Positions 3,273 to 63,962 of a stretch of DNA of 64,000 nucleotides are shown here, piece by piece; within the stretch, counting starts at the first letter, position 1, and every line of letters starts with the position of its first letter. Below the pieces are notes generated by a model. The model made no database searches, was not told the origin of the DNA, and was given only the letters and a program-made list of their open reading frames with translations. A program made the position numbers and the translations under genes. Source of the stretch: Eledone cirrhosa (taxonomy: Eukaryota); the NCBI GenBank assembly GCA_964016885.1, contig OZ024751.1, forward strand, positions 49,538,001-49,602,000. Reading direction: 5' to 3'.

Positions 3273-3712
3273 TATATTGTTATACTTTCGGAGGGTCATG
3301 TTGCCAGTAAGAAACACACGCACCAGTTGCTTTCACTTCAATTTATTAAAAATTAAATTTATAAATTTATTAATTTATAAATTCCCGGTTGGTTGGTTGG
3401 TTCCACAACCAGCCGATTGTTCATATATTGTCAAAGTTCTTTCGTCACACATAAACAAAGAAAAGAATCCCCAGTCACTGAAGAGGTCACAGAATGTGTG
3501 ACAAAAGAACTTTGACAATATATAAACCATCGTCTGGTTGTGGAACCAACCAACCGGAAATTTATAAATTTAATTTATAATAAATTGAAGTGAAAGCGAC
3601 TGGTGCGTGTGTTTCTTATTGGCAACAAGACCCTCCCAAAGTATAACAATATCGGTTTCAACACACGTTTTCAAATAAAGAATCTTGCTAAACAAATTCA
3701 GAAACGAAATAT
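3273..3712. mobile_element. Palindromic PLE-end insertion in (TA)n; right arm has an extra ~60-nt tail
   Basis: 3273-3452 is roughly the reverse complement of 3494-3651. Flanked by (TA)n on both sides. A related copy lies at 63517-63962. Confidence 0.75.
3474..3516 (+). ncRNA. Minimal type I hammerhead (GAAA mutated to AAAA in this arm)
   Basis: GTCA CTGAAGA G GTCACA gaatg TGTGAC AAAA GAAC TT TGAC. The inverted arm (3429-3452) preserves TGTGACGAAAGAACTTTGAC. Confidence 0.65.
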
Positions 3713-4906
3713 ATACACACACATATATATATATATATATATATATATATATATATATATATGTATGTATAAATATATATATATATATAAATATATATGT
3801 ATATATAAATATATATATATTTATGTATATATAAATATATATATATATATATATATGAATATATAAATATATATATGAATATATAAATATAAATATATAT
3901 ATATATATATATATGGTGTCAGAGTTTTGAATATTCCACAACCTGTCTCGTATGGTCTGCATATCATTTAACTCTGAGAAATACCGCCATATACACGTAG
4001 CCATCACTATTTCGCTATTTGTTAAATTGACTTATGGAAAACATGATGTTACTCGTAACATGTATTTACATACACACAAGTGTATACATACACACACACG
4101 CATACACACACACACACATGCACTCACACCCACTCACACACACTCACACACACACACACATACACACACATACACACACGTACACACACATACACACACA
4201 CACATACACACACATACACACACATACACACACATACACACACATATACACATACACACACACACATACACACACCCATACACACATATACACAGACATA
4301 CACACACATACACACACACATACACACACATAAATTGACTTATGGAAAACATGATGCAACTCATTACATGTATTTACATACACACACACAAGTGTATACA
4401 TACACACTCACACACACACACACACACACATATATATATATATATATATATATATAGTAACGGGTATAAATTGAAGTTGTAGACGCAGTATAGCAGATAC
4501 GAATCGATATATATGTGTGTGTGTGTGTGTGTGTGTGTGTGTGTGTGTGTACAATCGCACACACATATATGTGTATGAGTATACATCAAAGCACTTTAGG
4601 ACAAAACTACTTGTAATTTTCGAATGAAGGAGAGAGTTAATTGAAAATAATTCAAGATAGTGCAGTTGCAGTTCAGAGACGTTGATGTAACAATTAGAAC
4701 ATTATGGACATCTATAGGTATGATGTCTAACATATGTATTCAGTCAGACACCTAGCTGTTGACGCAACAAGATCTCTTTTTATGTAATGAGACGTGAATC
4801 TCAGAGAATAATTTGACACATTTGCTTAAAGAGCGTCTATGCTAAAGCATGAAAGGCGACAATAAGTTGGCTGCTATTTGAAAATAGCATAACTAAAGAT
4901 GAATTA

Positions 4907-5076
4907 CCGTATTTCCCGGCGCCGAAGATGCTTCGTCCTCGATGACGCACCATAATTTTGACAATCAAAAATTTGAAAAAAAAATAATGAACAACCTCCG
5001 GCCTCCAGGACGCATGGTAGACATTTTAGACATATTTTAGGAAAAAAAGTAACGTCTTCAACGCCGGGAAATACGG
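4907..5076. mobile_element. Tc1/mariner (pogo/Tc2-like) MITE
   Basis: TIRs CCGTATTTCCCGGCG / CGCCGGGAAATACGG with TA on both sides (4905-4906, 5077-5078). Confidence 0.85.
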
Positions 5077-5174
5077 TAACTTCACATCCATGCTTACGAC
5101 TCCACCATTCAATCTATTTGAAGATAATATTAGATAGAAAAACAACAATGATGATGATGATATTATTAATAATA

Positions 5175-5553
5175 ATTGTTTCTACTTTTGGCAGAAGGCC
5201 AGCAATTAACCAGTACATTACTGGTACTTTATTTTATCGATCCCGTAAGGATGAAAGGCAAAGTTAACCTCGGCTTGATTTGAACTCAGATCGTAAAGGG
5301 ACGTAACTACGCTGGAAAGCATGACCGACCCTCTACCGATACTGCCAATTTCCCTTTCTCATATAGGCACAAGACCAAACATTTTCGGGGAGGGGAAAGT
5401 CGAATAAATCGACCCCAGTGCGTGACTGGTACTTTTATTTTATCTACCCCGTAAGGATGAAAGGCGACGTTAACCACGGCGGAATTTGAACTCTGATCAT
5501 AAAGGGCCGTAACTCTATGCTCGACGCCCTACCGATACTGCAAATCCACTGTC
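5175..5553 (-). mobile_element. Two adjacent tRNA-derived SINE copies (5175-5352, 5355-5553)
   Basis: Reverse complement shows Pol III box A (TGGCAGTATCGG) and box B (GAGTTCAAAT), plus the shared body TTTGCCTTTCATCCTTACGGGGTCGATAAAATAAAGTACCAG. Confidence 0.85.
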
Positions 5554-6023
5554 TTAACATCTATCATAATAATAATTATGATTACGTAATTGAACACAAT
5601 TGTAACCATATTCCAATAGTTATGATAATGTGAAATGACGTACAATAGAAAATCGAGAAGAATAAACAGTTAACCATGAGGTATGATGGAAAGAAATTGG
5701 TAATAGTTCACGGATTATATAATACGCACACAAAACGACACTCACACACACACAAACGTACACACACGCACACACACACACACACGCACACATACACACA
5801 CACACCCACGCACACACATACACACATCTCATACACACACATATACACACACACAAACATAAATATGTATGTTTTTACGAATGCAATCATACGTATAAAA
5901 ATGTATATAAACACATTTATATATACATATATATATATAAATATGTGTGTGTGTGTGTATATATGTCTATATATATATACATATATATATGTATATGTAT
6001 ATATATATATGTAAGTATGTATG

Positions 6024-61090: not shown

Positions 61091-61509
61091 CTTACTGGTT
61101 CCTATATATATATATATATATATATACGATTAAAAATCTGAAATTTTTCTGGGAGCTCTATAAGTGTAGAGACGTTAATTAATTTAGGGCTTGAGTGAGA
61201 TCGTATCAATTACATAATTGATGCCTTTGAAAGGCGCAAAGGGCAATGGTGTCATTTAAAAAATGATCTAAGATTCCAGAATATTGCATTATTCTTCATA
61301 TACTAGTCTACCTCCCTCTCTCTCTCTTTCTCTCTCACACACATACACACACACACTCTCTCTCTCTCTCTCTCATCTCTCTCTCTCTCTATCTCTTTCA
61401 CTTACCCACTCACTCACTTTCTCCCCCTGCCTGTATATGTATATATATGCAAGTTTGTATGCATGTATGTATGTACGTATGTATGCCTATATATATGTAC
61501 GTATGTATG

Positions 61510-61790
61510 CTGGCAAAGGGTGCAGGAACTCAAGAAAGTCAACGGCCATCCAAATAGTACTGTTTGTTTCACTTGGGAGTGAAAGGCCCCCAGTTGTTGT
61601 CACAACACCTTTCTAGGAGAGGGAAACTCTGAAAAAACACCTTCGGCCTCGGAAGCATCCGATGATGTTGACCAGTTCTCCTTTTCGGGTAGGGTTTTCG
61701 ATGCTCAGAAAGTGGGATAGGTCGAGTGCAAGGCCTTTCTCCACTTAAAAACCTTTCAAAGCACAGACATTGCTTGTTCAGGATATGTTA
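61510..61790 (+). mobile_element. Decayed relative of the 48471-49078 element
   Basis: GGAACTCAAGAAAGTCAACGGCCATCC..TTCTAGGAGAGGGAAAACTCTGA..GATGTTGACC matches 48625-48780 loosely. Confidence 0.5.
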
Positions 61791-61984
61791 CATGTTTGTG
61801 TGACTGGCCATAGCCTAAAAGAGCACCAAACTCTATAACCTAACAAGCGATTGCAGTACTCTTAGCAGAGTTTGCAGCCATCATGCCTCTATGTAAGTAT
61901 GTAAGCGCGCATGTATGTATACCCAATAAAATTAAAACAGGGAGAAAGAATTACCTAGAAAAGTAATCATCATAGACAGATGGG

Positions 61985-62100
61985 TTAATGTGTAGTTTAA
62001 GCTAGGCACACAATCGTGAGTCATGATTTCGATTCACCCAGCAGGCGCCGCGTTGTGTCTCTGGTTACGTCACTTCATTTCACATTGCTCCAACTGTAAT
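61985..62100 (+). mobile_element. Old tRNA-SINE relic (different family)
   Basis: Box B-like GATTTCGATTC followed by GTTGTGTCTCTGGTTACGTCACTTCATTTCAC, resembling the widespread GTGTCCTTG..CACTT SINE core. Confidence 0.35.
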
Positions 62101-63516
62101 TCTCTGTGCCTGTAGGTCTTCACTCGCACTAAATCACCCTGACGTCTACCTTAAAGAGATTAGTGCTTGCATAAACCGGAGCACTCCTCGTCGTAAACGA
62201 CTAATGACCAACAGTAAAATATGAGCCAGTTTGGTGCATTAGTTTATATGTGTATCAGAAACCGTGTCTCCTCGTCTACAATAGCTAACCATATGGTGAT
62301 ATGATAGAAATATCTGGCCATTAAAACTAATACAATGTCGGTGCATTAATATAAACACAACGTAAAATCAAACAACTGTGCTTGTCGCAGGAAGTCATTC
62401 GGTACAAAATATATTAACCAATTTAGATTTGTAATAGTGTTTCGCTAAATTCTTTACTCGTATTACAGTTATATTATTAAGTATCATTCATCTAATGCAT
62501 ACACATTGGATTAAATACATATACACATACAATCACACACAGACATACACACACACAAATACTCACACATAAACACACACAGACACACAGACACGCAAAC
62601 ACATACACAGATACTCAGACACAACACCCAAAAACGCACACACATACACACACACATATATATATATGTTTTTATTTGCGTGTATATATGTATAAATGTG
62701 TAGATATATGTGTATATAAAGACATATATATATACACACACACACATAGAAACACACACACATATACACACGCACATACACACACACACTCACATATATA
62801 TATATATATATTATTATACTGAGCATGTAAATATGTAGATTAGTAAATCTCATATTGGTTATGTCTAGTGAAACAGCTTTTGAAATTAGGTGTTAGTAAT
62901 TTTTATCCTGAATTATATATATATGTCTGTGTGCATGCATCTGTGTGTGTGTGTGTGTGTGTGTGTGTGTGTGTGCGTGTGTGTGTGTGTGTGTGTGTGT
63001 GTGTGTGTGTGTGTGTGTGTGTGTGTGTGTGTGTGTGTGTGTGTTGGTGTGAATGCACCCTGATGTCCTGGATAAATTACATATCAATCAATTCAATGGA
63101 CTTGGAATACATACACTACATCCAGATTTATTGCCACGATAATGCAGAGCAATTTTCATTACAGCCCTAAATGTTATTTGTCTACGAATTGTGAAGTATG
63201 TGTGAAATCTATTCCGGAAATGGACGTATTTTGCAGCCTTTTTATATTTTCTGATATAAATTTTCTCAGACAACAGGGCAGACGATAAAAACCTACTCTT
63301 CCAACAATATCAACAGCAAAACAAATGATATGTACACACAGACTTATATCAACCCTACTTTCCTCACACATATTTTCTCGTAGCAATAAGGGTAATGCTG
63401 AAGTTGTCTTTATTTGATGATATATATATATATATATATATATATATATATAAGGGTGGGTGTGTCTGTAACTATGTATTAATGTATGAATCTAAGTGTA
63501 TATGTATGTATATATA

Positions 63517-63962
63517 TTTGTTTTGCGAGGTTTTTTAGATGAAATCGTGTGTCGAAACAGATATTGTTATACTTGGGGAGGGTCATATTGTTATAATATT
63601 GCCAGAAATAATAACAGAACACACTCATTGTTTGGTTGGTATTCGCTTCTGTATCTTTTATATCTCCATAGTTAATTCATCCGGCAATCAATGTTTATCA
63701 TTGATTGACCAACGGTCAAAAATCCAGAAAGAAATATATATATATATAGTCTAACAAAGTTCTTTCGTTGCACATCTGCAACATTATCAGTTGTGCTATT
63801 ATGTTTCCTCCTGTTGTATTGTATGTCTACGCCATTTTTATTTTATCTGGAAACAGATAAGATAAAAATGTTGTAGATATATCAACCAAACAGTGAGTGT
63901 GTTCTGTTATTATTTCTGGCAATATTATTACAACAATATGACCCTCCCCAAGTATAACAATA
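63517..63962. mobile_element. Palindromic PLE-end insertion related to 3273-3712, with left-arm tail and a decayed hammerhead (~63753-63796, -)
   Basis: ATATTGTTATACTTGGGGAGGGTCAT (63561) mirrors ATGACCCTCCCCAAGTATAACAATAT (to 63962). Minus strand reads CTGATAA T GTTGCA gatg TGCAAC GAAA GAAC TT. Confidence 0.7.

Follow-up and report, generated by a model that had tools for sequence, protein, structure and literature searches.

One short and one long 3' end per Penelope-like insertion at an Eledone cirrhosa locus, and a candidate twin RNA hairpin that may position both

We describe a 64,000-nucleotide stretch of the Eledone cirrhosa genome (contig OZ024751.1, positions 49,538,001 to 49,602,000; hereafter the window), AT-rich animal DNA that is dense in (TA)n tracts and carries many Penelope-like element (PLE) insertions. 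A catalogue built from masked self-alignment, analysis of palindrome centres and alignments of ends sorts them into ten sequence families, A to J. It holds 21 head-to-head insertions, each lying between (TA)n tracts with the 3' ends of its two arms pointing outward; one of them (1-2998) is cut by the window edge. The first-pass annotation of this DNA had counted about 20 such insertions, and the self-alignment and end alignments bear this out. We write S for a short 3' end and L for a long one, L being S extended by a tail of 54-114 nt; 'box' denotes a hairpin motif that is defined below, and tails (in brackets) and spacers between arms are given in nucleotides. The insertions, their fragments and their open reading frames (ORFs), which encode reverse transcriptase (RT), are as follows.

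1-2998: family A insertion; left arm 1-297 (minus strand) cut at the window edge, right arm (plus strand) with its short end at 2998.
Within 290-1723, plus strand: family A ORF in the right arm of 1-2998; Hydra-clade by sequence, 5'-truncated.
3274-3706: family D insertion; left short, right long (54), spacer 41; box not recognised.
7858-8081: family B insertion; left short, right long (94), spacer 6; box at about 7998-8045 (a pattern match, not a covariance-model match).
8120-8349: family C insertion; left short, right long (89), spacer 3; box 8260-8292.
8629-8826: family E insertion; left long (84), right short, spacer 2; box 8676-8712 (minus strand).
10130-10743: family F insertion; long arm (minus strand) with a hammerhead-like motif and a 534-nt tandem unit, short arm of 15 nt; no box in the tail, a degenerate box past the long-end site.
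10756-10817, minus strand: orphan short arm of family B, partner absent.
30772-31234: family C insertion; left short with a full hammerhead (H17 at 30820), right long (90), spacer 249; box 31144-31176.
31275-31472: family B insertion; left short, right long (87), spacer 6 at hammerhead stem II; box 31381-31439.
32567-32740: family A insertion; left short, right long (79), spacer 27; box 32661-32697.
33468-33670: family B insertion; left arm tail only, right arm tail-less (H17 at 33645).
35248-35468: family C exception; 32-bp hairpin with a 1-nt spacer, left arm ending at a non-canonical internal site, right short.
37071-37505: family G exception; left arm ending 1 base 5' of the cleavage site, right long; box 37434-37465; centre of (TA)n and a repeat resembling a short interspersed element (SINE).
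39111-46211: family H insertion; short left arm 39111-42299 (minus strand), long right arm 42300-46211 (plus strand), 652-nt spacer, 65-nt tail; arms 99.9% identical; H17 at 46103 and 39154; box 46144-46177.
42300-44177, plus strand: family H ORF; 5'-truncated, Hydra-clade RT by sequence with a C-terminal GIY-YIG-type region; DKT, CxCX5C, CxxC and CxH, without CCHH.
47633-47766: family A insertion; left short, right long (80), centre at hammerhead stem III; box 47687-47723.
50465-50882: family I insertion; left long (86), right short, spacer 0; box 50514-50551 (minus strand).
51141-51324: family G insertion; left short, right long (79), spacer 5; box 51255-51286.
51399-51704: family J insertion; left long (94), right short, spacer 1; box 51453-51491 (minus strand).
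51736-51925: family A insertion; left short, right long (80), spacer 6; box 51846-51882.
52654-52695, plus strand: orphan tail fragment of family B.
58417-58463: family A insertion of 47 bp; short arm beginning 0-1 nt past the cleavage site, other arm tail only.
58486-61102: family A insertion; left long (80), right short; ORF remnant 59743-59942 (DKT), internal deletion; box 58529-58565 (minus strand); U3-A8 variant hammerhead with H17 at 61085.
63520-63962: family D-like insertion; left long, right short, spacer 236; box not recognised.

Judged by the sequence diagnostics of the clade, the window ORFs are those of Hydra-clade PLEs. The diagnostics, taken from the available text of Craig et al. 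2021 (PMC8557442), are DKT, a CxCX5C linker ahead of a C-terminal endonuclease, the absence of CCHH, and CxxC and CxH motifs. Both the family H ORF and the remnant at 59743-59942 show the DKG to DKT change; in alignments, C470, C472 and C478 of the linker are invariant in both window ORFs, CCHH is absent, and CxxC and CxH are present around conserved E and N residues. The GIY-YIG residues Y491, Y509 and G511 are invariant and PF01541 is found in the top homologue, while Pfam returned no family for either window ORF. An RWK N-terminal motif is seen in full-length homologues (45-59% identity); the window ORFs are truncated at that end. Relatives of ORF 42300-44177 numbered 1,967 among 8,000 scored candidates, and by eye the window ORF resembles Hydra-1_Obim, which the same text places in the clade, where it also lists Penelope-13_HM with a 5'-truncated inverted copy. 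The likeness extends to a hammerhead with a U..UGAA base of stem II and to the (TA)n target, into which the window copies are indeed inserted; published tails are 30-40 bp, against 54-114 nt here.

Type I hammerheads were recognised by descriptor in families B, C, G, H, I and J. Those of A (the U3-A8 variant), D and F are predictions assigned by eye and by folding, none was assigned in family E, and at the gathering score Rfam gave no match in the window. U3-A8 cores and opposite-strand hammerhead pairs are described, and circles proposed, in the available text of Cervera and de la Pena 2014. Within the window an ORF is joined to families A and H only; the box is common to B, C, E, G, I and J and absent from D and F. 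Inside the family H arms, the stretch 44569-45950 precedes the present end and resembles a captured 3' flank: it includes an older copy of the hammerhead in which position 17 is G, an earlier short end, a (TA)n tract and some 1.4 kb of DNA rich in microsatellites. The older hammerhead, the earlier end and the microsatellite-rich DNA would fit capture by read-through.

The ends of these insertions fall into two classes, and each insertion has one of each. Of 20 insertions with both outer ends visible, 18 pair one S with one L and none pairs like with like; were each arm to pick S or L independently at even odds, the 18 cases would have a chance of 4e-6. An inverted, 5'-truncated copy with a tail at one end, as in PLE units, is likewise seen in 18/20. 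When the TA-adjacent ends (75 on the left, 79 on the right) were scanned for like-with-like pairs, four matches came out, none of which is a single S+S or L+L PLE insertion: two bridge separate insertions, one is internal to 39111-46211, and one is a non-PLE repeat. The rule of two ends across many families, already proposed in the first-pass annotation, thus holds with two exceptions, 35248-35468, whose left arm ends ~160 nt upstream of S, and 37071-37505, whose left arm ends 1 base before the cleavage site. End alignments show positions that are constant to a few bases among copies of one family. From the predicted cleavage site to S the distance is 15-56 nt in seven families, 142 nt in D and 156 nt in F; the first-pass annotation had given 12-50 nt in most families for one end and ~60-100 nt further for the other. 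The predicted site is crossed by 29 of 34 arms and by both arms in 13/17 insertions, which agrees with the earlier statement that both usually cross it. Which arm reaches further 5' follows no constant order, as both orders occur, and private variants are common to both arms of one insertion (51736, 8120). The arm that starts 0-1 nt past the cleavage site (58417-58432) and the one that ends 1 base before it (37071) are possible traces of cleaved RNA templates.

Overlap with the target could be scored where the long arm reveals the onward sequence of the template. In 16/16 such insertions, a run of 2-5 alternating T/A bases is common to the short end and the flank. Summed over one insertion for each of the ten families, the overlap is 36 against a null mean of 10.3, a value reached in 1 of 200,000 draws, with the reservation that the families are not fully independent because C, I and J are related. 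A 4-nt overlap is also present at the long end of the tandem copy in family F.

At the inner (5') ends, by contrast with the random truncation that had been claimed for them, the two arms end within 6 nt of each other in 8/18 insertions, where 1.7 would be expected (0 of 100,000 permutations, using hand-entered arm lengths). Such coupling could come equally from snap-back of one cDNA, from a shared RNA 5' end or from slippage that later removed the centre of the palindrome; post-insertion deletion is seen in 58486-61102. The other inner ends are mostly 27-652 nt apart, or belong to arms that do not overlap. Inspected by eye, microhomology at the inner junction seems clear in 31275, 47633 and 51736 and one base off in 7858 and 51141, the templates being diverged copies. 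Arms overlap in 16/18 insertions. The end alignments confirm that 58417-58463 and 33468-33670 each join a tail-only arm to a tail-less one. These tail-only arms support the earlier contention that the arms are not a simple fold-back of each other; it is weakened in that later deletion could mimic them and about half of the centres resemble fold-back hairpins.

A candidate for what sets the two ends emerged from relatives. We assembled 96 loci of related elements from metagenomes and contaminated metagenome-assembled genomes, with inverted repeats in 23 and direct repeats in 65; the animal Hydra-clade PLEs of L079-L096 sit in contigs filed as bacterial genomes, which indicates host contamination. 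Twenty-nine tandem junctions, running from the hammerhead to the Hydra ATG, were searched with the pattern RCTC..GAGYRC for the box motif RCUCY..R-UH-GAGYRC. Two strict boxes are present in 22/29 (23 when relaxed), one box in 4 and none in 3, and a covariance model trained on 45 boxes finds two in 4/7 junctions that have fewer than two strict boxes. Among shuffled junctions, 0.03% contain two boxes. Measured from the cleavage site, the start of box 1 is 33-52 nt and that of box 2 92-134 nt downstream, at a spacing of 57-83 nt. The predicted fold is a 4-bp stem with a 2-nt 3' bulge and a variable upper stem; the stem closes in 45/46 isolated boxes (partly by construction), and 99.6% of 225 cells are paired in 45 aligned boxes (family B, with its long loop, omitted). 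The outer pair varies between G-C (39) and A-U (5), and the pair above the bulge, which formed no part of the search pattern, between C-G (27) and U-A (17). Both boxes are present at the 5' end of the published Hydra-1_Ajap consensus. Rfam had nothing on a twin-box junction, and 50400-52000 gave only generic hairpin matches. This tandem, covarying hairpin between the hammerhead and the next ATG is apparently an undescribed cis element of Hydra elements.

Forty-six candidate ends beside TA-like runs were found in the relatives. Template was available for 23, and two (L039, L054) were dropped as being templates that contain an internal TA run rather than ends; L014, L052 and L056 were kept among the scored ends though mis-phased by a fuzzy match. 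All 21 scored ends lie 0-12 nt 5' of a box and none lies past box 2: 12 have no preceding box (S) and 9 have one (L). TA overlap is at least 3 nt in 15/21. Five two-armed S+L insertions are present (in L062, L081, L086 twice and L088); another in L086 (2190-6035) looks like S+S, but it is nested, its inverted arms running ~200 nt past the TA tracts, and for that reason was not scored. The locus L083:3622-6184 is single-armed; its 5' end meets (TA)n exactly at box 1, its 3' end is long, and on either side it has a direct repeat of 66 nt that equals the tail. In the window, 8/10 families carry a box 2-12 nt past S, and the 13 best covariance-model matches all fall inside tails; for six of these the copy, family B among them, had not been used in training. 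As far as these alignments go, the register of the hairpins would predict both insertion ends across many invertebrate Hydra elements.

Raw reads were drawn from three same-species Illumina runs of restriction-site-associated DNA (RAD), in which 18,688, 19,607 and 23,460 reads aligned to a family A copy. Loose ends that continue as TA past the family A long end number 3,353, 3,498 and 4,683; these counts cover long ends only, as two indels of the reference copy near 58580-58597 clip the upstream alignment. Other read classes are mini-palindromes, in which a long arm leads into a short arm and this in turn into TA.

Two end classes, one of each per insertion, a TA overlap, and a register just 5' of hairpin 1 (S) or hairpin 2 (L) are what the data display. 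We consider it probable that Hydra-clade PLE insertions and their stumps are made by twin target-primed reverse transcription, with two RNA hairpins 3' of the hammerhead each positioning one RT on nicked (TA)n; twin hairpins likely account for the two fixed ends and for the one-of-each rule. In such a process the endonuclease would nick both (TA)n strands, and each 3'-OH would pair with 2-5 nt of UA a few bases 5' of a hairpin. Priming 3' of the hammerhead requires an RNA that has not been cut at that point, which could be a tandem read-through RNA or a religated circle. With two copies of the protein bound to one RNA, one at hairpin 1 and the other at hairpin 2, each two-armed insertion would receive an S arm and an L arm, and its tail would be as long as the hairpin spacing. 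The two same-sense cDNAs would then be joined head to head, about half of them at a short hairpin centre (by snap-back or later central deletion) and the remainder through template jumping or end joining. As no L end includes a copy of box 2, this box most simply acts in the RNA; alternatively, L may be primed on read-through (UA)n. As a new copy stops before box 2, a complete two-box junction behind an ORF needs tandem read-through or a religated circle.

A related proposal, which we advance only tentatively, is a two-site RNA ruler: identical bulged hairpins would each load an RT at one end of a double-strand cut in (TA)n, and the junction would be rebuilt by read-through or by hammerhead cleavage and circularisation. 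Were this true, the PLE hammerhead would gain its missing function. The primer overlap of 2-5 nt UA 5' of each hairpin can be likened to the template-boundary element of telomerase and, PLE RTs being sisters of telomerase RT, a hairpin-set priming register may bear on the origin of telomerase template boundaries. A short, repeated, covarying element also allows mutagenesis to test how PLE arms and tails form, and a rule for true element ends, which (TA)n flanks obscure, is useful to curators.

Much of this anatomy has precedent. An inverted arm, a one-sided tail (in qualitative terms), two internal RT starts, nicking and extension of both strands and an uncleaved template are all published (Craig 2021, PMC8557442; Frangieh 2024, PMC11167929, both in the text available), so that the mechanism put forward in the first-pass annotation was mostly known. 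The text of the latter reports that PAc (Poseidon of Anolis) nicks and extends both strands from two internal RT starts that bound the tail; it needs the first 172 nt of the ORF yet starts at ~111-118, RNA 3' of the starts is required, uncleaved RNA is the dominant substrate in vitro, hammerhead cleavage is dispensable, and a dimer is predicted. The Hydra insertions would resemble PAc in the nicking and extension of both strands, in two internal starts at the bounds of the tail and in the RNA needed 3' of the starts. They differ in that the starts of PAc fall within its ORF and are described as lacking homology to the target, whereas here they lie in the untranslated region, with 2-5 nt of TA overlap, and a copy of the repeated hairpin comes after each; how the two sites pair in single insertions was not a subject of that study. 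The earlier suggestion of dual priming at one internal and one distal site accordingly fits both the window and the PAc biochemistry, the hairpins and the TA overlap being additions made here; its suggestion of an uncleaved or religated template likewise has precedent, in the uncleaved substrate of PAc and in the circles proposed by Cervera and de la Pena 2014, and either a circular or a tandem template may serve here.

Arkhipova et al. 2013 (PMC3846280), in the text available, describe a tail on one of two inverted pseudo-long terminal repeats (pLTRs) and capture of host DNA before the 3' pLTR. Their insertions share with ours the inverted 5'-truncated arm, the one-sided tail and, as in 39111-46211, host-DNA capture; the inverted arm and the tail are described there as optional and are uncounted, and the target-site duplications visible there are hidden here by (TA)n. 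In PMC8557442, the available text states the formation of inverted arms and tails and the role of hammerheads as open questions; 'hairpin' and 'stem-loop' do not occur in its main text, where we found no remark on the twin boxes visible in Hydra-1_Ajap. On ends, the available text of Cervera 2020, a 2026 retrozyme preprint and a curation guide (PMC8969392) mentions only inverted pLTRs and short 3' extensions. In the literature searched, mostly non-subscription and including the figure supplements of PMC11167929 (no text matches), we found no description of the twin hairpin or of a one-of-each count.

In twin priming of the L1 element, both target strands prime cDNA on one RNA and a 5' inversion results; its arms are mostly non-overlapping and its second site is variable. 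The priming of both strands on one RNA is shared, but here both sites are fixed and non-overlapping arms are found in only 2/18 insertions. Non-LTR retrozymes (PMC7229834; bioRxiv 10.64898/2026.07.22.740005, in the text available) have a type I hammerhead, tandem units, and a proposed PLE-dependent mobility and circular RNA. Family F (10130-10743) is similar, with a retrozyme-like 534-nt unit and one hammerhead-like motif and without a tail box; it has one unit and a partial repeat, with a change of G12 in the core, where retrozymes have two or more units in tandem and an entire hammerhead in every one. Most insertions here differ from retrozymes in being stumps of element 3' ends rather than tandem monomers.

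Several points weigh against twin hairpin-guided priming. In the window, box 2 is not seen for any family that has box 1, so that the long-end register rests on the relatives; there, 23/46 candidate ends were without template and hence unscored, and the scored loci are not independent samples, as several are sister families. Families D and F have no tail box. Single-armed copies exist, both in the window (10756-10817, 52654-52695) and among relatives (L083). A read joint at 58510-58561 (16 and 37 reads, from 1-2 start points) may be long+long, and in run X7 a joint at 58501, in 49 reads, links the family A tail end to the family C short end, which reflects either a two-template insertion or a deletion between neighbours. 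According to the text of PMC11167929, the start site of PAc is alike on both strands and not homologous to the cut DNA. Finally, like-with-like insertions could vanish faster, as they form longer perfect palindromes.

We think it unlikely, if the best of the rivals, that a single cDNA primed at the long site folds back into a double-stranded intermediate, which the endonuclease would cleave at the short site, TA-like as it is, and connect to the target's other end, with the boxes as recognition sites for cutting; 'EN-mediated resolution' is proposed in the text of Craig et al. (PMC8557442). The hairpin centres of 0-6 nt in 8/18 insertions favour this course, the TA overlap at S would also suit a TA-specific nuclease, and in D. 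virilis the tail is required for endonuclease recognition (as cited in the text of PMC11167929). It would, however, call for later deletion in at least five two-ended cases (30772, 32567, 33468, 58417, 58486), where short-arm sequence is missing from the long arm; long ends hold the same register before a box 2 that is never copied; and internal RT starts were measured for PAc at both ends of the tail (PMC11167929, same text). Independent priming of the two strands by separate ribonucleoproteins, each using either site, seems quite improbable to us: one-of-each would then come from faster loss or mis-assembly of symmetric palindromes, and L may form without box 2. The X7 reads that link families A and C suit it, as does PAc, with no strand difference in start site reported in that text. 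Yet 0/18 insertions are symmetric even though the window retains palindromes whose arms are 96-100% identical and whose spacers measure 0-3 nt, both arms of one insertion share the private variants noted above, and the chimeric read could stem from deletion between neighbouring insertions. Fold-back during reading or assembly, which two palindromes with arms at least 99.4% identical might suggest, is almost certainly not their source: arm identity per insertion ranges from 82 to 100%, symmetry does not reach past the elements into the flanks, which are unlike each other, Illumina reads of three other runs again contain long ends that continue into TA as well as long+short mini-palindromes, and the same layout appears in unrelated assemblies.

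The surrounding DNA is itself rich in repeats. Copies of a non-PLE repeat at 38522-38935 (minus strand) and 48471-49076 (plus strand), which we take to be RTE-like, are 97% identical, inverted, 9.7 kb apart and meet (TA)n at the same terminal base; a diverged relative lies at 61611-61775. Two 3' ends resembling long interspersed elements, at 8405-8608 (plus strand) and 8889-9093 (minus strand), 91% identical and presumably also RTE-like, face each other around the family E palindrome. Between TA tracts, 46266-47199 has ends with a 3' hairpin followed by CTAG, a motif that we assume to be Helitron-like. Single-armed fragments at 36769-36999 (minus strand) and ~10850-11070 (plus strand) bear, by eye, minimal hammerhead-like cores of another PLE type. 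One SINE-like family occupies 15040-15790, 5157-5550, 21684-21891 and 37161-37333 and includes a tail-to-tail cluster. The appearance of the SINE-like repeats and the likeness of the ORF to Hydra-1_Obim would both suit a cephalopod-like host. A long tandem satellite array at ~22000-30400 gives rise to spurious repetitive His/Thr-rich ORFs. A collagen-type Gly-X-Y exon is found at 50231-50311, and the insertions likely sit in introns of a collagen-type gene.

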